A stretch of 64,000 nt of DNA, from sequence record MK524178.1. One strand, given 5' to 3'. The notes under the pieces are model-generated. The model did not search any database. It was given only the letters and a program-made list of their open reading frames with translations, and was not told where the DNA came from. Made by a program: the position numbers and the translations under genes. Each line of letters begins with the position of its first letter. The first letter of the stretch is position 1. The stretch is from Escherichia phage PHB12. Shown here piece after piece: positions 2,934 to 44,367 of the stretch.

Positions 2934-3357
2934 ATTTAAATTTAATTTTCTGAAGTGCATCAATTGCAGCCAAACGCCCTTGTTCACTTTTAACTGTAAT
3001 GACCACATCACCTGATACGATCACCGAACCATCAACAAATTCTACAGAGCCTTTTTTGAAATCGACAGATGTATCTGGTTCCGGAACTTCTTCAAAGAAT
3101 TTAAATTCTGCACCATAAAGCAGAATATCACCTTGCATACTATGAATAGTTCGGCCATAATCGCCTACGGCTTCTACGGCAATAACCGAAACGCCGTAAC
3201 CAATCATCTCTTCCACAATAAAATCTTTGGACAATAAAGTAGTATGCAGATTAGTATTAAGACGTTTACCAGTCGTATTAAGAATTCTCAAGAAATTATC
3301 TTCCTGTCCTTTGATAATACGATATTTCTTACCAACTTCAAAACCTTTAAAAGCCAT
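2932..3357 (-). CDS. hypothetical protein (39.1 position)
   Basis: 141-aa ORF directly upstream of gene 39, co-directional; no recognisable motif. Confidence 0.4.
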   Translation of the reverse strand: MAFKGFEVGKKYRIIKGQEDNFLRILNTTGKRLNTNLHTTLLSKDFIVEEMIGYGVSVIAVEAVGDYGRTIHSMQGDILLYGAEFKFFEEVPEPDTSVDFKKGSVEFVDGSVIVSGDVVITVKSEQGRLAAIDALQKIKFK

Positions 3358-3359
3358 AA

Positions 3360-3539
3360 TTAACCCTTCTTAAGTAAGTCGTAAAAACCACCGTTCACAT
3401 GTTTAGGAGCAGAAACCCGACGAGTAGACAGACGATGACATTCAGGGCAAACATCGTTTTCTCGTTCAGAAATTCTTTTAATTTTTTCATATTCATGGCC
3501 ACAATCTTCAGATTGACATTTATAGTCGTATAACGGCAT
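3360..3539 (-). CDS. small zinc-ribbon protein, FmdB-like (59 aa)
   Basis: Not in ORF track (<60 aa). MPLYDYKCQSEDCGHEYEKIKRISERENDVCPECHRLSTRRV... has two CxxC pairs and the MP-x-Y-x-Y-x-C start typical of FmdB zinc ribbons. Confidence 0.4.
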   Translation of the reverse strand: MPLYDYKCQSEDCGHEYEKIKRISERENDVCPECHRLSTRRVSAPKHVNGGFYDLLKKG

Positions 3540-3541
3540 TA

Positions 3542-3970
3542 TTATTCCTTAAAATGTGCTTTCAACATTTGATACAAAGACCATGCCTGGTCGTTATTTT
3601 CGATAGTAATCGTCATCACCGGAAATTCAGACAATTCGCCAAGTTCACCAGAATCTTGCTCTTCGGACGCTTGATATGGATTTCCCACTTCATCAAAAAA
3701 CTCTGCTTCACTAGTAGAGAGCCAGATAAAGTTTTCATCAAGGATATCACCGCCTGTTGCGTATCCAACCGTGCCAGTAGATGTCACAATTTTAGTAGGA
3801 CGACCAAGATGGTCAACATCTAATACTTTAAATGGTTCCATGCCAAGACGTCGTGCATAAATCCCATTATCAGTGTGGTTTTTAATAAACTCTTTTTGGG
3901 TACGTTTATCTTTAAATTGGTACCATGAGTTAACGCGGAATTTATTAGCCATTAGTAAGTTTCCTTCCAA
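3542..3970 (-). CDS. hypothetical protein
   Basis: 142-aa ORF in the 39-dexA interval; no motif. Confidence 0.45.
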
Positions 3971-4787: not shown

Positions 4788-4816
4788 ATAATATCAAAAC
4801 CAGAGGAGAAGTAAAC
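4788..4816 (-). promoter_or_regulatory. early promoter (-35 GTTTAC, 17-bp spacer, -10 TATTAT) nested in 11-bp inverted repeat
   Basis: Minus strand GTTTAC-ttctcctctggttttga-TATTAT; arms 4768-4778 and 4798-4808, downstream arm carries the RBS GAGGAG. Confidence 0.55.
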
Positions 4817-12754: not shown

Positions 12755-12952
12755 ATGTTTAAACTTCCATCGTTAATCAACGCTATTAAAGGCAATAAAA
12801 AGAAAACTGCTATCGCTGCAATAGTTGTAGGTGGCATTATTTCATGGAACTTCGGGATTGCACCATTGTTAGTTGCTAATGGTATTATAGTTCCTTCTGT
12901 TCCATTGGATACTGTAGTTGATTTGGCCTTTGCTATTATAGGGCTTGTTTAA
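12755..12952 (+). CDS. small hydrophobic membrane protein on plus strand
   Basis: 65 aa; RBS AAGGAG 6 nt before ATG; two hydrophobic helices; convergent with gene 61. Confidence 0.35.
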   Translation: MFKLPSLINAIKGNKKKTAIAAIVVGGIISWNFGIAPLLVANGIIVPSVPLDTVVDLAFAIIGLV

Positions 12953-13971
12953 ATCTTAGAATAACGAGATAATCTCATTTTAGCATGCAACCCACTTGAA
13001 ATATTCTGTTTCATATATTCTAAAATTTCTTGTGGTGTTGCATTTTCTTTCATTACCATATCATTCACATCCTTTGATCTCCATGGAGCTCGGTCCCAGA
13101 ACATAACACGTTCGCCTGCATCAACTAATCGCTTCATGCGAGCTATAGTATCCGGATGCCTAGGTTCATTATCCATTACCCATACCCGACGTTCTTTAAA
13201 TGGTGCCACATCTAAATCTATTGAGCCGCCTGTAATAGCGATTGCATTGGGTATGAATAAACTATCAATAGGGCCTTCCATTACCCAGACGTCTCCTTCC
13301 TTAACACGTTCAACACCATAAATTTTTGTTGCAGACTCAAACGCTTTAATAGTGATATATTTCTGAGGAGCATCTTTACGAAGTGCACGTCCTTGGAATG
13401 ACTCGGCCTTCCCGTCTTTATTAAAAATAGGAATCACTAAACGTGGTTCGGGAATCTCTTTCTTATACGTACCAGGTTGAATCTTGTTGACCAATTTAGG
13501 CCATTCTAATGTGAACCATAATCTGTTCCATGATTCTTTAGGAATGCATCGAGACTTAACATATTTCACAATAGGATGCTCTTCAGGCAGCTTGTCCAGA
13601 CGAGAACAAGACGGCAAAGAATTTATAGTCTTTTTCTCTGGCTCCGGCTTAGCTTCAGGAACCTTTTCAATCTTTGGTTCCATTCTAGCTTTTTCTTTAC
13701 GAACTTCCATTAGATACTCGCGATAAAGCTCTTCATCATACTCTTTTAAGTATCCGGAAATTGTATTGTGGTATTGACAATTATAGCAATGTACATTACC
13801 AGGAGTACCACCATAATACCATCCGCGGGCTTTCATTGCATCTGTCTGAGAGTCACCACAAACTGGACATCGAAATGTTAATTTAAACGTGCTTGAATTA
13901 TTGATTTGTCTAAAACGAGGTAGGTGAGAAAACGCACGATAAGCAAATTCATTATCTATCCATTCAGCCAT
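12949..13971 (-). CDS. 61: DNA primase
   Basis: 340 aa; zinc motif CPVCGDS...CYNC; strong match to T4 gp61 N- and C-termini. Confidence 0.9.
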   Translation of the reverse strand: MAEWIDNEFAYRAFSHLPRFRQINNSSTFKLTFRCPVCGDSQTDAMKARGWYYGGTPGNVHCYNCQYHNTISGYLKEYDEELYREYLMEVRKEKARMEPKIEKVPEAKPEPEKKTINSLPSCSRLDKLPEEHPIVKYVKSRCIPKESWNRLWFTLEWPKLVNKIQPGTYKKEIPEPRLVIPIFNKDGKAESFQGRALRKDAPQKYITIKAFESATKIYGVERVKEGDVWVMEGPIDSLFIPNAIAITGGSIDLDVAPFKERRVWVMDNEPRHPDTIARMKRLVDAGERVMFWDRAPWRSKDVNDMVMKENATPQEILEYMKQNISSGLHAKMRLSRYSKI

Positions 13972-14010: not shown

Positions 14011-14505
14011 TCACAACTTATTAATATTTACTTTAATTCGCTTTCTTTTCTTGGAAGGAATTTGTTCTGGACCTTTATTTACGACTGCACCTGTAGTTGT
14101 TCCTGATGCAATAGCTTGAGGACTACCGCCTGAATCACCAGCAACCATATCCTCAAATAAAGGGAGTTCTTTAAATATTTCTTTCTGTTGTTCTTCCGTA
14201 ATGTTATAGCGTGAAGCTACAGCACTCCAGGCAGACATCATTGAGGCCATTCCATTAAGACCTGGAACAGTGCTCATCATTCGCTTCATTGAACGAACTG
14301 AAGCATGAAAAGGTGTATACGCCGCTTTCTCTTCGGGAGTAGAAGGACGTTTAAGAACACTTCCACGTTCATCGATGATTTTGGCTTCGTATGCTTTCCA
14401 TTCGGTAAAAGGTTTTTGCATTAGTCGAATAAACTTATATGCATAAACAGAATCTATTGCAGTGTTAATAATACCCATAGGTACCTCCTGAGTATATTTA
14501 ATCAA
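14011..14505 (-). CDS. hypothetical protein (61.1 position)
   Basis: 164-aa ORF. Confidence 0.4.
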   Translation of the reverse strand: MIKYTQEVPMGIINTAIDSVYAYKFIRLMQKPFTEWKAYEAKIIDERGSVLKRPSTPEEKAAYTPFHASVRSMKRMMSTVPGLNGMASMMSAWSAVASRYNITEEQQKEIFKELPLFEDMVAGDSGGSPQAIASGTTTGAVVNKGPEQIPSKKRKRIKVNINKL

Positions 14506-14695
14506 TTACAAAGATTGCTTTGTCACCATTTATATCTGTGACTTCATATGTAGTGCCTTCATACTGTGGAATATTCCAAATTACACCGTCATTGGCTTTT
14601 ACGCTAATATGGTATTGGTGTTTTGAAACAACTTCATAATCTTCAAAACTTGTAAAAACACTAATTTTGGAACCAGTGCAAATTGCAGTAGTCAT
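14498..14695 (-). CDS. hypothetical protein
   Basis: 65-aa ORF, overlapping neighbours. Confidence 0.3.
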   Translation of the reverse strand: MTTAICTGSKISVFTSFEDYEVVSKHQYHISVKANDGVIWNIPQYEGTTYEVTDINGDKAIFVID

Positions 14696-14696
14696 T

Positions 14697-15356
14697 TTAA
14701 CCTCGATTCATAAATGCATTAAATATTTGGTCATCAACAGAAATTTCTAATTCGACTTCAATTGTTTCAGCCTTTTCTTCAGGTGGTAATTCGTATCCAC
14801 ACACTACAATTTTTTCATCGATATCAAAATATACAGAAGCAATACGATTAATGTTATTTTCGGTTAAGTCTAAATCAACATCAACGTCTTTTTGACCTAC
14901 ACTTAAAGGATAACTAATACGGGTTATTTTATTATCTTTAACAAAGAGTCCACCGACATACTCTGTACTACGTTTGAAGTTTACACGTTTCCGAAATGAA
15001 AGATATGATGCATCTTTACCGTGAGCTCGGCTCATAGGACATAATGAATAGCTAGAATAAGAGATGTCAAATCCTACACCTTCAATATGAGCCAACGCGT
15101 CATGATTAAACCAATTATAATCATATGCCAAATCCATTATATTGTAATATGTGAAAGGCACCGGATTAACATCGTACGTTGTACCTTTAAAATCTGCCCA
15201 GGCAACGATTTCGTTATCTTTAACAATTACAAAAATTACACCAATATGGTATCCGTTATTATTTTCATTCGGCGTTATATTATAACATTGTGCATTAGGA
15301 AATTTACCATATTTAAACGGCGCATTTTTGTGCATATAATAAATCATATTATTCAC
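14697..15356 (-). CDS. hypothetical protein (61.2 position)
   Basis: 219-aa ORF. Confidence 0.45.
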   Translation of the reverse strand: MNNMIYYMHKNAPFKYGKFPNAQCYNITPNENNNGYHIGVIFVIVKDNEIVAWADFKGTTYDVNPVPFTYYNIMDLAYDYNWFNHDALAHIEGVGFDISYSSYSLCPMSRAHGKDASYLSFRKRVNFKRSTEYVGGLFVKDNKITRISYPLSVGQKDVDVDLDLTENNINRIASVYFDIDEKIVVCGYELPPEEKAETIEVELEISVDDQIFNAFMNRG

Positions 15357-15642
15357 CTGTGATTTCGGTTACGATATCTTTGTTATCGAAATTAGGGTCA
15401 CAATACAAAACATAATTGTACTGCATGATACCACCAGACTTAAGTTGTTCAACAACTTTATTAACCATATTAGGACGGTCTCGTTTAGTGATGTTCATGA
15501 TATCAGAGAAGATTTGTTGTTCAACATCTTCTTGATTTGCAGTCATTGACCACTCACAGAGGTCTTTATCATAACCTGCCGTAACTGGAGCTGGTGCACA
15601 TGATACTGCAAGTAAGATTGCTGCCAATGATAACTTTTTCAT
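15349..15642 (-). CDS. sp: spackle periplasmic protein
   Basis: 97 aa with signal peptide; GYDKDLCEWSMTA...SGG.MQYNYVLYCD matches T4 Sp. Confidence 0.75.
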   Translation of the reverse strand: MKKLSLAAILLAVSCAPAPVTAGYDKDLCEWSMTANQEDVEQQIFSDIMNITKRDRPNMVNKVVEQLKSGGIMQYNYVLYCDPNFDNKDIVTEITGE

Positions 15643-15705
15643 TTTAACTCCTTAGTTGATTTGATAGGACTACTATACTATAGTCCATCTATAATGTAAA
15701 CAAGT

Positions 15706-15954
15706 TTATTCTTTTTCGCGAATAATAATTACTTGTTGAGGCTGCTGAGCAGATTTCTTTTCGGCAACGATAGACCAAATTAAAGTTCCAATCCAACCAA
15801 TCATCGTCCAGTTAAAGAGTAAAGATACAAAGAAGATTGCTGTTGTGCTTTTTGTGCCACGAATAAGTGCGATTACCCAAGGCAACATGTAAATGATGAT
15901 TGAACCAATACCTGCGATTAAAACTGCTACTGAACTAGCTACGAATAATTCCAT
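15706..15954 (-). CDS. small inner-membrane protein, Imm-like
   Basis: 82 aa, two TM helices, motif PWVIALIRG similar to superinfection-immunity family. Confidence 0.45.
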   Translation of the reverse strand: MELFVASSVAVLIAGIGSIIIYMLPWVIALIRGTKSTTAIFFVSLLFNWTMIGWIGTLIWSIVAEKKSAQQPQQVIIIREKE

Positions 15955-16015
15955 GTTAATTTCCTCTTGATTTGTTATGTTTATAATATCTTGTTTTAAC
16001 TTTGGTGTAAACCAA

Positions 16016-16384
16016 TTAATTAAATTTGTTTAAACGTTCAATACACTGGACGTAGTTATTCGCAATTTGTTTCTGGGTAGGCTCTTTACCAGTTGTTTCA
16101 ACATGGCGAATGAATGCGATTTCAGTAGCCTGTAGACAATGTTCTTTAACGCGTTGTTCTTTTGACAATGCTACAGTATCAGAATCACGATAACGTTGAG
16201 CATGAGCATCAGCTTGAATCATTCGATTGCCTACAGTAACCGGGTCTTCCACTTCAACTTTAGGTTGGTCGTACTGTTTAACATTCGGATTGTAAATCAG
16301 TTGGCCAACGTTATTAGGGATAAAGCCATGGGCACCACATCCAGTTAATCCAAATATCATTGTTAAAGCGATTAATTTTTTCAT
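16016..16384 (-). CDS. lipoprotein
   Basis: Signal peptide with lipobox LTGC (MKKLIALTMIFGLTGCGA). Confidence 0.5.
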   Translation of the reverse strand: MKKLIALTMIFGLTGCGAHGFIPNNVGQLIYNPNVKQYDQPKVEVEDPVTVGNRMIQADAHAQRYRDSDTVALSKEQRVKEHCLQATEIAFIRHVETTGKEPTQKQIANNYVQCIERLNKFN

Positions 16385-16454
16385 TTTAATTTCCTCTGTA
16401 GTTGATAAAAAGATAGTAACACAGTATGTGGTGCTTGTAAACAGTTATTTAAAA

Positions 16455-16643
16455 TTATCGAAAATCTGCTTCGAAAACTTTCTCGTCATTAACAAATGCT
16501 TTAACTAATGCGTTGTTCACTTCAGCAAGTTGTACCGCAACCCACTCGATTTCTTCGCGATCACCTGATAACATGATATCTTTAGTGAACATCTCACCGC
16601 TTTTAAACCAACCAATAAAAGTAACTTTAGTTAATTTGCTCAT
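16455..16643 (-). CDS. dmd: Dmd antitoxin (inhibitor of host RnlA/LsoA)
   Basis: MSKLTKVTFIGWFKSGEMFTKDI...AEVNNALVKAF.ND.KV.E.D.R matches T4 Dmd (about 60 aa). Confidence 0.75.
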   Translation of the reverse strand: MSKLTKVTFIGWFKSGEMFTKDIMLSGDREEIEWVAVQLAEVNNALVKAFVNDEKVFEADFR

Positions 16644-16957
16644 ATTTCCTCGCAAAATGCCCATTCAGCGTGATAAACTGTGGCGCCTTTAGTATTATTC
16701 ATTTGAACTACGTCTACCGGAGAAATTACTCGATAGAGACGTGGTTCACCTCCATAAGAGCGTGCTGCTCGTCCTGCATAAATCTTTGCTAAACCGATAT
16801 CTTCAGTAAAGAATACACGATCCAAGTTTTTCTTACGTCCAGTTTCAGACAGAACTCCTGTTTCCTCAGGAGGACAAAGCATGTTTTCGATGTTAGCTGA
16901 ACTACTTGAACCGTGATAAAAAATCTTAAATTCTGCTTTACAATCGATGGTTTTCAT
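16640..16957 (-). CDS. hypothetical protein
   Basis: 105 aa; stop overlaps dmd start (ATGA); promoter within RBS-sequestering inverted repeat upstream. Confidence 0.45.
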   Translation of the reverse strand: MKTIDCKAEFKIFYHGSSSSANIENMLCPPEETGVLSETGRKKNLDRVFFTEDIGLAKIYAGRAARSYGGEPRLYRVISPVDVVQMNNTKGATVYHAEWAFCEEI

Positions 16958-16983
16958 TTTGTTCTCCAGTAGTTGATAGGTCT

Positions 16984-17012
16984 ATAATAACACAACTACT
17001 GGAGAAGTAAAC
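16984..17012 (-). promoter_or_regulatory. early promoter (GTTTAC / TATTAT) nested in 12-bp inverted repeat
   Basis: Arms ctccagtagttg (16964-16975) and caactactggag (16993-17004); downstream arm contains the RBS. Confidence 0.55.
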
Positions 17013-17387
17013 TTAAAAATGTAATTTAGATATATCTGCGTTGATTTCGTTTTGGTTTGCGTCATATGCAATTAAACGAACCGCTTTAGATGGGTCATTC
17101 AATGCATAGAAATGATGGAACATTGCTCGAACGATATCACCATTTACGAGTTTTACCTGGATAGGAGAACCTTTTTCGAGTTGGAAATGTTCATAAGCTT
17201 TGATGGTTCGCAGATAATCAAGTTTTTGATTTCCGGCTCCAACAATTTGTACGATACGTTTGCCCATGTTTTCCATACGAGATACAATAGTTTTAGGAGC
17301 AAGAATAACATAGGTTGCCAGCGGAGAATCTACTTCAACAGTTGTGTTTTCGGTGATTGCAGTAAAAATTGCTTGAGACATATTCAT
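17013..17387 (-). CDS. hypothetical protein
   Basis: 124-aa ORF with promoter at about 17417-17446. Confidence 0.45.
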   Translation of the reverse strand: MNMSQAIFTAITENTTVEVDSPLATYVILAPKTIVSRMENMGKRIVQIVGAGNQKLDYLRTIKAYEHFQLEKGSPIQVKLVNGDIVRAMFHHFYALNDPSKAVRLIAYDANQNEINADISKLHF

Positions 17388-17416
17388 AGTGTTTTCCTCT
17401 TGGTTGGTGTAAGTAC

Positions 17417-17446
17417 ATCATATCATGCCTAGAGGAAGATGTAAAC
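17417..17446 (-). promoter_or_regulatory. early promoter-like (GTTTAC / TATGAT)
   Basis: gGTTTACatcttcctctaggcatgaTATGAT upstream of 17013..17387. Confidence 0.45.
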
Positions 17447-17452
17447 CCCGAA

Positions 17453-17475
17453 AGGAGACCGAAGTCTCCTTTTTA
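17453..17475. terminator. hairpin after gene 41 (orientation ambiguous)
   Basis: AGGAGAC-cgaa-GTCTCCT followed by TTTTT on plus; on minus followed by UUUCGGGG. Confidence 0.4.
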
Positions 17476-18918
17476 TTAAAATTTTAACTCATTGGCTAAG
17501 CTATCTAGGTCAGCACGTGTTGTTTTGGCTTTACCTACGCGTTCCGTACGATTCACCTCTGCCTGACGCATCTGAGCACCTGCGTTTTCATTTACTGTGT
17601 TAGGTGTGTTCATGCCTTCTTGCTCAATCTCAATCCATTTCTGGTTGCCTTTACGTACACCCATCAGGAATTTATTCCACTTATTCTTATCACCATATCG
17701 TGATTTGATTTGTTTGATAAGTTGTTGTTCAGCTTGTGCAAGTTCTTCGGTTTCAATTACGGCCAACATGAAATCTGCCGTTGCTGGTAAACCTGCTGAT
17801 TCTGCAATATCGCGCATGTTCATATCCGAAGCATCCCATGCTGCACGTCCTACTTGAGCTGCAGTCCATAGAACTGTTTCAGATTCTACTGCTAATGCAC
17901 GAAGTTCTTCTGCGATAGCTTTAACTAATGTGTAGCTATTTTCAGTGTAAACTCTGATACGACAAGACCCACAAATACCTAAGTAATCAACCATGATTAC
18001 AGATGGCACAAAGTTCTTCTTAAGTTTTAACTCATTAAGCAATGCACGGAATGTATTAGCATTAGCTCCGCCAGTAGGATACTGTTTAACTACTAAACGT
18101 CCTAATGTGGATTTTGAACGCCATTTTTCCATCTTGGCTTTATATTCAGCATAAGATACGTTACCATCATCAATATCATCAAGTGATACGTCAAGCATGT
18201 TTGCATCTATACGCTTAGCGCAAACTTCTTCAGCCATTTCCATGGAAATATAAAGAACATTATGACCTGTTTGAAGATAATCTGCAGCAAGTGAACAAAG
18301 GCCTAAAGATTTACCAACGTTAACACCGGCCATTAAAACATTCAGTGTACCGGTTTCAGCACCACCTTTAGTGATTTTATTCAGAATGTTTAATTTGAAC
18401 GGGACCTTACGTGCTTTGTTCAGATAAGAAAGCCAGCGTGCTTCATAGTCTTCCATCCAGTCATGCCCAACATAACTATCAAACGAAATTGAAAGTGCTT
18501 GACGCATAATATCAGGAATAGCTCCTACGTCAGGCATTTTCTTGTTACGTTGTTCTGGAGGTAGTTCAGCATTAGATTGAATCTCAATGATTTTAGATGT
18601 AGCATTATACATCGCTTTTTGCTGGACATATTTCTCAGTTTCTTTAACCAACCATTCGTGGTCTTCAGGAGTATCAGCCAATTTTTCAATTAGGTCTGAA
18701 GTTCCTTTATATTCGGCTTCAGTTAAAGAACTGTTATCTAAAGCCACCTTTAACGCATTGATAGATGGCATTGCATTATATTCGTTAACGTGGCTCTTTA
18801 TAATTTTAAAGACGTTTTTTGCCGGTCCACGCTCAAAATACTCAGAATCCATATAAGGCCAGACCTTAGAAAAATAAGCCTGGTCATATACTAGATGAGA
18901 CAAAATAATTTCTACCAC
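17476..18918 (-). CDS. 41: replicative DNA helicase (DnaB-like)
   Basis: 480 aa; Walker A GVNVGKS and RecA-like core; T4 gp41-like. Confidence 0.9.
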   Translation of the reverse strand: MVEIILSHLVYDQAYFSKVWPYMDSEYFERGPAKNVFKIIKSHVNEYNAMPSINALKVALDNSSLTEAEYKGTSDLIEKLADTPEDHEWLVKETEKYVQQKAMYNATSKIIEIQSNAELPPEQRNKKMPDVGAIPDIMRQALSISFDSYVGHDWMEDYEARWLSYLNKARKVPFKLNILNKITKGGAETGTLNVLMAGVNVGKSLGLCSLAADYLQTGHNVLYISMEMAEEVCAKRIDANMLDVSLDDIDDGNVSYAEYKAKMEKWRSKSTLGRLVVKQYPTGGANANTFRALLNELKLKKNFVPSVIMVDYLGICGSCRIRVYTENSYTLVKAIAEELRALAVESETVLWTAAQVGRAAWDASDMNMRDIAESAGLPATADFMLAVIETEELAQAEQQLIKQIKSRYGDKNKWNKFLMGVRKGNQKWIEIEQEGMNTPNTVNENAGAQMRQAEVNRTERVGKAKTTRADLDSLANELKF

Positions 18919-44068: not shown

Positions 44069-44239
44069 TTAGTAAACGTTATAAAAGTTACGATGAGAAC
44101 GTTTAGCTTTGCGAAGCTGACGTTTAGTAGGACGAACTGTAAATGGTTGTCCAGAGAAAAAATTCGGATCGGTTTTAATAAGCAAATACCAATCATGCTT
44201 GCCATTTTTTAATAAACGGTACAATAATTTAACTTGCAT
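44069..44239 (-). CDS. small basic protein
   Basis: Start at MQVKLLYRLL. Confidence 0.3.
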   Translation of the reverse strand: MQVKLLYRLLKNGKHDWYLLIKTDPNFFSGQPFTVRPTKRQLRKAKRSHRNFYNVY

Positions 44240-44367
44240 AATAATCTCTTCCCATTTCCATATCAATTAATTCATTTATTGAAGGCTCATCATAACATGT
44301 TTCTTCGTCGTTGTAAACTGTTTCGACGTCTGGCTCAACAGTCTCCCATCGAGCCGAATACCACGGT

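Follow-up and report, generated by a model that had tools for sequence, protein, structure and literature searches.

A predicted mini ADP-ribosyltransferase encoded upstream of dmd in an early accessory-gene island of an RB69-like phage

Between the helicase gene 41 and dmd, Escherichia phage PHB12 encodes a 105-residue protein that, judged from its predicted structure and its motifs, has an ADP-ribosyltransferase (ART) fold of the Arr/Tpt1 branch. We analyzed this mini-ART gene (16640-16957; phrog_2110) and its surroundings in a 64,000-nt stretch of sequence record MK524178.1; the whole stretch is called the window, and all coordinates are positions in it unless a locus is named. The phage belongs to Mosigvirus, the RB69-like T-even phages, and the minus strand carries all genes of the window between 12.9 and 20.4 kb, along with each window feature given below as a coordinate range. 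A sequence-only reading of this DNA had described a cluster of envelope-targeted and antitoxin genes between primase and helicase, in which dmd was followed by a 105-residue unknown. The five open reading frames (ORFs) do lie at the positions given there, on the minus strand between the genes for the gp41 helicase (17476-18918) and the gp61 primase (12949-13971). The proposed order, however, has to be reversed, because in the direction of transcription the mini-ART gene precedes dmd: gp41 is followed by a 124-residue protein, the 105-residue protein, Dmd, a 122-residue lipoprotein, Imm, Spackle, AdfA (61.2), a 65-residue ORF, a 61.1-like protein and gp61. The annotated phages mogra and AV109 have the same gene order, and the block is also carried by BASEL-collection phages such as ChristianSchoenbein and AlbertHofmann.

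The region is an immediate-early accessory-gene island of an RB69-like phage, placed between genes 41 and 61 and made up mostly of known genes. Its 2.9 kb from 14600 to 17500 are 98-98.6% identical to many Mosigvirus genomes, with 151 phage records covering at least 80% of the stretch. Given this identity and the strong homologs that each ORF of the block has, these are not chance reading frames. What Spackle, Imm, Dmd and AdfA do is found in textbooks or has recently been published, and their presence is routine. Two points are added here: the 105-residue unknown is recognized as an ART-fold protein of minimal size and high conservation, so far untouched by experiment and co-expressed with dmd, and the lipoprotein as one member of a mobile cassette, imm.1-imm.

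Fold, motifs and relatives of the 105-residue protein

The AlphaFold2 (AF2) model of the protein (predicted local distance difference test, pLDDT, 86.5; predicted TM-score, pTM, 0.77) has an ART fold with a split beta-sheet core. Its best structural match is Tpt1/KptA (9ld3, score 8.4), followed by Arr (9iaf, score 7.9, 85 residues aligned at 22% identity), AcrIF11 (6.6) and diphtheria toxin (6.0). The remaining matches are mostly to other members of the ART superfamily, among them PARPs, DarT, RES toxins and pertussis-like toxins. The earlier description of the protein as uncharacterized still applies to its function, but the fold sets it apart from envelope and antitoxin-like proteins.

Conservation follows the motifs of this fold. 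The protein of the window carries H15-G16-S17, E38-x-G-R41-x-K-N44, F49-F50-T51 and Y60, and homologs with 60-98% identity are abundant in phages of many genera. When 37 of them were aligned, H15-G16, E38, R41, K43, N44, F49, T51, Y60, R63, G69-G70 and E103 were invariant. Across a broader set of 92 representative domains, H15, G16 and Y60 are present in 100%, Thr or Ser at position 17 likewise in 100%, E38 in 99%, F49 in 98%, and T51 and R41 in 97% each.

An exhaustive profile search with this domain recovered 228 clusters, many of them stand-alone proteins of about 100 residues and others carrying the domain within proteins of up to 3,924 residues. Partner domains in the multidomain relatives include ART-PolyVal, NUDIX, GNAT, Toprim, portal, tail, CHAP, 2H and ddrB-ParB, which are typical of the polyvalent proteins of phages and conjugative elements (PMC5512222), a context that fits an effector acting at the start of infection. 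It is through these relatives that the family connects to Arr (PF12120) in sequence. The Pfam Arr-ms profile is matched with E <= 0.001 (1.8e-9 at best) by 31 of the 54 multidomain relatives, several of them above its 25-bit cut-off, over profile positions 1-67 of 99 only. One relative's domain also matches the Arr-ms crystal sequence 2HW2 (E 9e-4), with YHGT, (V/I)(F/Y)xT and E-x-G-R-x-x-N as common motifs. In that alignment Arr His19 pairs with His15 and Tyr49 with Phe49 of the 105-residue protein, and Trp59 falls roughly on Tyr60. Arr, too, is small, with a single ART domain of the H-Y-[EDQ] type, and its YHG[ST], hydrophobic-aromatic-x-T and E-x-G-R-x-x-N motifs align with those of the family.

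Distribution, constraint and expression of the mini-ART gene

Searches with tblastn found the protein in 609 phage records, spanning Mosigvirus, Dhakavirus-like phages, Slopekvirus and T4-like phages of Acinetobacter, Aeromonas and Vibrio, so that the hosts of its carriers are Escherichia, Klebsiella, Acinetobacter, Aeromonas and Vibrio. Among the matches listed there was none from Tequatrovirus, and T4 has no such gene at its dmd-gene 41 locus. The mini-ART, being absent from T4, was thus never seen by classical genetics. A handful of GenBank records label the protein 'putative ADP-ribosyl transferase' or 'rifampin ADP-ribosyl transferase', and the UniProt/BFVD entries of two close family members call it uncharacterized. 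Our literature search found no paper on the family or on a characterized phage Arr-like ART, and the accessible text of a survey of viral NAD and ADP-ribose systems (PMC9503650) does not single the family out.

The gene is under unusual constraint. At each of the 18 loci outside Mosigvirus where gp41 is also present, the mini-ART is more similar to the window copy than gp41 is, with mean identities of 84% and 65%, which is striking for an accessory gene when set against a replicative helicase. This constraint suggests that the target is invariant rather than a fast-evolving defense protein. The location of the gene is less constant: the window and Acinetobacter phage 133 have it in the gap between genes 41 and 61, and KP15 and Aeromonas phage 25 carry it in the hoc-srd-rnlB region.

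Expression is predicted to begin early. The window contains 24 copies of the T4-type early-promoter motif, GTTTAC-N17-19-TANNNT, compared with 2.95 +/- 1.74 expected, and 23 of these copies are on the coding strand. Five fall within 15672-17446, one each before the gene for the 124-residue protein (17417-17446, GTTTACA-N17-TATGAT), the ART-dmd operon (16984-17012), imm.1 (16413-16442), imm (15983-16012) and sp-adfA (15672-15701). No promoter of its own was found for dmd in the motif scan. Its ATG overlaps the TGA of the mini-ART gene as ATGA, as the sequence-only reading had noticed, and its candidate Shine-Dalgarno sequence, GAGGAA, lies in mini-ART codons 103-104. In Dhakavirus-like loci the same tight junction (...GAGGAAATCTAAATG) leads straight into dmd, and in other genera the mini-ART end junction (...GAGGAAATCTAAATG) leads into other small genes.

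A hairpin of 14 bp (about 16957-17011; free energy -22.1 kcal/mol, z -4.9) overlaps the mini-ART promoter; its 5' arm is the -35 side of the promoter and its 3' arm covers the mini-ART Shine-Dalgarno sequence. The site would by inference be sequestered in read-through transcripts coming from upstream and free in transcripts that start at the proximal promoter. This promoter and ribosome-binding-site hairpin was also the only match of an Rfam scan, which scored it as sub-threshold and miRNA-like. At many early promoters of the window, including those at 4788, 17417, 53807, 58061, 60244 and 61972, a pyrimidine-rich, CTTCTCC-like anti-Shine-Dalgarno stretch directly follows the -35 GTTTAC. At the mini-ART gene (16945-17020) it is this stretch that pairs with the ribosome-binding site in the 14-bp hairpin. 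From its sequence, this stretch looks like a recurrent device for limiting translation to proximal-promoter transcripts. Just past the gene 41 stop and ahead of the next early promoter stands a hairpin that resembles a terminator and has a UUCG loop (AGGAGAC-TTCG-GTCTCCT followed by TTT; ~17453-17470), and a near-identical one lies upstream of the mini-ART promoter in locus L028.

Two further observations concern genes that adjoin the mini-ART gene elsewhere. In Slopekvirus and Aeromonas T4-like phages the gene is preceded by one for a protein of 250-290 residues, represented by KP15_201 (2093-2968 of locus L004) and ORF162 of phage 25 (2181-2939 of locus L006), which are 27% identical (E 7e-11). 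A Pfam scan of these proteins gave no match, and they are possible lineage-specific partners of the ART. In a Yersinia phage TG1-like locus (L023), the mini-ART stop is coupled not to dmd but to a gene (3318-3608) whose 96-residue product has several cysteines as well as a signal peptide and may be a further periplasmic exclusion factor.

We propose that host RNA polymerase would fire the five closely spaced early promoters to give short transcripts encoding, respectively, the 124-residue orphan, ART and Dmd, Imm.1, Imm, and Sp and AdfA. From the early dicistronic message the ART would be made first, with dmd as the second, translationally coupled cistron. Homology to the T4 and RB69 proteins suggests what the partners would do: Sp would be exported and block the tail lysozyme of superinfecting phages, Imm would sit in the inner membrane and block DNA entry, Dmd would stand in for the labile antitoxins of the RnlA and LsoA RNases, and AdfA would bind DarT.

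Enzyme activity, possible acceptors and competing explanations

We hypothesize that the 105-residue protein is a minimal, stand-alone mono-ADP-ribosyltransferase that depends on nicotinamide adenine dinucleotide (NAD+) and belongs to the Arr/Tpt1 branch, a chemistry suggested by its modeled fold and its motifs. It would most likely modify an invariant host target, either a non-protein acceptor (a phosphate or hydroxyl of RNA or a nucleotide) or a core machine, and so contribute to takeover of the host or to counter-defense; a fast-evolving defense protein is less likely as the target. A non-protein or conserved target is favored because the ART is more conserved than the helicase and because its nearest structural relatives modify non-protein acceptors. 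We put the probability of an active early ART, with such a conserved non-protein or core target favored, at roughly 0.7, and that of any specific acceptor much lower. The analysis shows the gene identities, the modeled ART fold with its NAD-site motifs, the promoter motifs, the operon structure, the synteny and the conservation; what we infer is ART activity, early action and a conserved target that is probably not a variable defense component.

Several observations weigh against this reading. The protein itself has no match in Pfam (even at E <= 1), in NCBIfam, in PADLOC or in the PDB, whether searched with phmmer or with a profile. An hhalign comparison of the family profile with a 66-residue Arr piece reached only 12% probability, so the link to Arr is carried by structure and by transitive sequence matches. 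The Arr triad is H19-Y49-D84 (PMC8120803), and although the His is present, Tyr49 is aligned with Phe49; the alignment with 2HW2 ends at Arr residue 82, so that the equivalent of Asp84 can be placed only by extrapolation, at what is Asn88 in the window phage. Of the 37 close T4-like homologs, 31 have Asp or Glu at position 88, but among the 92 representative domains only about one in four has Asp there. Glu103 is invariant among close homologs only, not family-wide, and no universal acidic residue was found in the C-terminal half of the 92 domains. From these sequence patterns the NAD pocket is well supported, but the catalytic acid is not secure. The protein is also near neutral (isoelectric point, pI, 6.1), which is atypical for nucleic-acid-binding ARTs. 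Finally, dmd follows the mini-ART gene only in Mosigvirus and Dhakavirus-like phages, and no universal neighbor was found in 65 viral-contig loci, where gp41, uvsX and gp40 are the commonest; with no gene neighbor shared across lineages and dmd in two groups only, a link to defense against RNA toxins is weak.

The two closest known enzymes suggest two more specific functions. As a true Arr, the protein would inactivate rifamycin-type or hydroxyl-bearing small molecules that would block the host RNA polymerase on which the phage relies, a very improbable function in our judgment, even with the sequence bridge to Arr-ms and 2HW2 and the 'rifampin' label on some GenBank homologs. At 105 residues against 143 for Arr-ms, this phage early gene product is 38 residues shorter, and the matches of its relatives end where the C-terminal third of the profile begins, so that this third differs. 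To our knowledge, enteric bacteria, Acinetobacter and Aeromonas are not obvious rifamycin environments either, which we also count against such a function. Because the protein has no Pfam match of its own, differs at two of the three triad positions and leaves the C-terminal third unmatched, we do not regard it as a bona fide Arr. It is less improbable, though still unlikely, that the protein is a Tpt1/KptA-like phosphate ADP-ribosyltransferase, which would remove 2'-phosphates or cap the 5'-phosphates of RNA or DNA, and we judge it similarly unlikely that such an enzyme would work alongside Dmd, helping to mend or protect RNAs of phage and host after cleavage by defense RNases. The domain is fused to a 2H phosphoesterase in one case and to NUDIX in three, which resembles the KptA-2H and KptA-Nudix combinations reported from viruses (PMC9503650). 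The gene is predicted to be co-transcribed and translationally coupled with dmd, whose product inhibits HEPN RNases, and in KP15 it lies ~1.4 kb upstream of RNA ligase 2. Such fusions are few, however, the adjacency to dmd is limited to two genera, and the pI is neutral. Tpt1 has two lobes with an R-H-R-R tetrad (R18, H19, R68 and R121 in C. thermocellum; PMC8120803), whereas the 105-residue protein corresponds to the NAD lobe alone, as a stand-alone domain. Most of the tetrad must lie in the missing N-terminal, RNA-binding part, so a full set is impossible, and with the RNA lobe absent the protein is not Tpt1.

A modifier of a host protein, in the manner of AcrIF11 or of Alt and the Mod enzymes, could act on a defense component, on RNA polymerase or on the translation apparatus. 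For the ARTs of polyvalent proteins, modification of host proteins at entry has been proposed (PMC5512222), the promoter points to early expression, and Alt, ModA and ModB of T4 are likewise T-even phage ARTs that act at the start of infection. We nevertheless consider a protein acceptor doubtful. Alt, ModA and ModB are large enzymes of the R-S-E clade (PMC5512222), whereas the 105-residue protein is of the H type. No sequence similarity to AcrIF11 was found, and in contrast to what is typical of fast-evolving counter-defense proteins the family is extremely conserved in lytic T4-like phages. That it is more conserved than gp41 in phages infecting Escherichia, Acinetobacter, Aeromonas and Vibrio disfavors a rapidly evolving defense target, though not a core machine, and neither Arr, its closest relative in sequence, nor Tpt1, the closest in structure, modifies proteins. 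The missing family-wide acidic residue at the canonical strand-5 position could instead mean that the protein transfers nothing and is a binder (sponge) of NAD+ or ADP-ribose, an NADase or a catalytically dead scaffold. This is quite unlikely, as the complete or near-complete conservation of H-G-[ST], F-x-T, Tyr60, E38 and R41 is what would be expected of an active enzyme. The 4-nt ATGA overlap, which is typical of toxin-antitoxin operons, might also suggest that Dmd neutralizes the ART. That arrangement is scarcely credible: Slopekvirus and the Acinetobacter and Aeromonas T4-like phages have the ART without an adjacent dmd, the downstream gene varies, and T4 has dmd without the ART. On these phyletic grounds we reject Dmd as a cognate antitoxin of the ART.

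If an active early ART is the correct reading, knowing its target would extend by one enzyme the short list of phage ARTs, namely Alt, ModA, ModB and AcrIF11, and the protein could help to clarify what Arr-type enzymes natively do, which is still debated. A far-reaching version, in which the smallest self-sufficient ART yet seen is a deeply conserved immediate-early enzyme of T-even-like phages other than T4, has a non-protein acceptor and works with Dmd as a new counter-defense, is a speculation to which we give rather little credence. Were it true, the ART would act against RNA-targeting or nucleotide-signaling immunity, with an RNA end, an immune signaling nucleotide or another small molecule as acceptor.

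The imm.1-imm cassette and the other genes of the island

The 122-residue lipoprotein (16016-16384) is a homolog of T4 Imm.1 by sequence, matching it over its full length, lipobox included (BLASTP E 4e-18, 31% identity), and it matches Pfam DUF5481 (PF17578; 2.5e-8, 34.7 bits against a cut-off of 27). The lipobox recognized in the sequence-only reading is present as L13-T14-G15-C16, with Gly at +2. That reading had also called the protein uncharacterized, which is right as to function, although its homology to Imm.1 means that it does not stand alone. Wherever a Mosigvirus or Tequatrovirus locus was examined, imm.1 stands immediately upstream of imm, but at different places in the genome: between dmd and sp in Mosigvirus, and between genes 43 and 42 in T4. 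The two genes are thus adjacent at different genome positions, so the pair moves as a cassette. Searches for Imm.1 homologs yielded only 6 sequences. The homologs come from Mosigvirus and Tequatrovirus only and fall into two groups (95-99% and ~32% identity). Between the two genera Imm.1 has diverged much more than Imm (31% versus 65% identity).

In E. coli, the Lol sorting rule sends a lipoprotein with Gly at +2 to the outer membrane, and Imm.1 is accordingly predicted to be an outer-membrane lipoprotein that faces the periplasm. Its conserved Cys83/Cys114 pair points to an oxidizing compartment as well. The variants P0271 and P0274 have a plain AxA signal-peptidase site in place of the lipobox Cys, so export, not the lipid anchor, is the constant feature of the family. 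We propose that Imm.1 would be exported to the periplasm, in most cases with a lipid anchor, and that its gene and imm travel together as a cassette of two; most likely it would be an accessory of envelope-level exclusion. Its AF2 model is poor (pLDDT 62, pTM 0.38), with a helical hairpin at 75-120 as the only confident part, and this counts against that role, for which synteny, location and secretion signals are the evidence. The cassette makes Imm.1 a cheap, testable candidate for a missing partner in T-even superinfection exclusion. In RefSeq, T4 imm.1 (NC_000866; 9137-9514 of locus L003) is named 'iduronate sulfatase', a label that has spread to other phage records and has no support: T4 Imm.1 is a secreted protein of 125 residues with DUF5481 as its only Pfam match.

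The remaining genes named in the sequence-only reading were identified correctly. Dmd inhibits RnlA, and the Dmd of the window, a predicted antitoxin mimic against RnlA and LsoA, matches Pfam PF17587 (2.7e-19, 69.7 bits against a cut-off of 27) and is 53% identical to T4 Dmd. Its true start is the second ATG, as annotated in mogra and AV109, which gives a protein of 62 residues (16455-16643). Imm (15706-15954, 82 residues), a predicted hydrophobic inner-membrane superinfection immunity protein, matches Imm_superinfect (PF14373; 1.5e-15, 57.2 bits against 27.9) and has 65% identity to T4 Imm. Its expected two hydrophobic stretches are both there, a strong N-terminal one and a weaker second one, as judged by hydrophobicity rather than by a dedicated transmembrane predictor. 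Spackle, encoded by sp (15349-15642, 97 residues), matches T4_Spackle (PF25676) over residues 1-96 (1.1e-42), at 145 bits far above the cut-off of 27, and is 66% identical to T4 Sp. Its N-terminal hydrophobic segment is followed by a cleavage site between VTA and GYD, which makes a cleavable signal peptide and leaves a mature protein of ~75 residues. It keeps Cys29 and Cys81, which form a disulfide in the structure of T4 Sp, an inhibitor of the gp5 lysozyme (PMC7677548), and by homology it would act in the periplasm to inhibit the gp5 tail lysozyme.

The view of this region as a block of envelope-exclusion and antitoxin genes gains further weight from adfA (gene 61.2; 14697-15347, 216 residues), directly downstream and outside the stretch originally described, and fits the five T4-type early promoters within 1.8 kb. 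The adfA start is 1 nt past the sp stop codon, and the protein matches Pfam PF23813 (1.4e-120, 400.8 bits against a cut-off of 27) and is 66% identical to T4 AdfA, anti-DarT factor A, which counters DarT (PMC9391042, PMC11825919). PHROGs agrees with Pfam on Spackle, Imm, Dmd and AdfA. Residue 168 of AdfA (164 when counted from the MHK start) is Arg, within NNINRIAS, and appears equivalent to R164 of RB69 AdfA, a variant reported as not neutralizing DarT1, where T4 has His (PMC11825919). With Arg at this position, the phage of the window is predicted to be sensitive to DarTG1 unless it has a working AdfN.

Compared with the T4 sp/dmd-tifA locus, the window has the same genes, at the identities given above, and an early-promoter style in common with it. 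The T4 locus has tifA (61.4) between dmd and sp (PMC9391042), whereas the imm.1-imm pair occupies that position in the window, and two extra genes, for the 124-residue orphan and the mini-ART, lie between gene 41 and dmd. Since tifA has been reported beside dmd in RB69 (PMC9391042), it was expected next to dmd here but is not at this locus. A weak TifA-like sequence, a 65-residue ORF (44069-44266) beside endonuclease VII (gp49), contains the T4 TifA basic core motif FTVRPTKRQLRKAKR (67% identity over 18 residues, E 0.002), so that a TifA-like function may be encoded ~27 kb from dmd.

Three smaller ORFs complete the region. The 124-residue protein (17013-17387; phrog_10668) is essentially a Mosigvirus-specific orphan: it was found in 134 phage records, nearly all from Mosigvirus at 95-99% identity, with two distant matches below 60% identity, one of them in a Salmonella phage at 36%, and a Pfam scan gave no match. 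The 65-residue ORF between adfA and the 61.1-like gene (14498-14695; phrog_3249) has no counterpart that we could find at the T4 locus. The 61.1-like protein (14011-14505) is 164 residues long, compared with 54 in T4, and matches T4 61.1 in its C-terminal 48 residues only.

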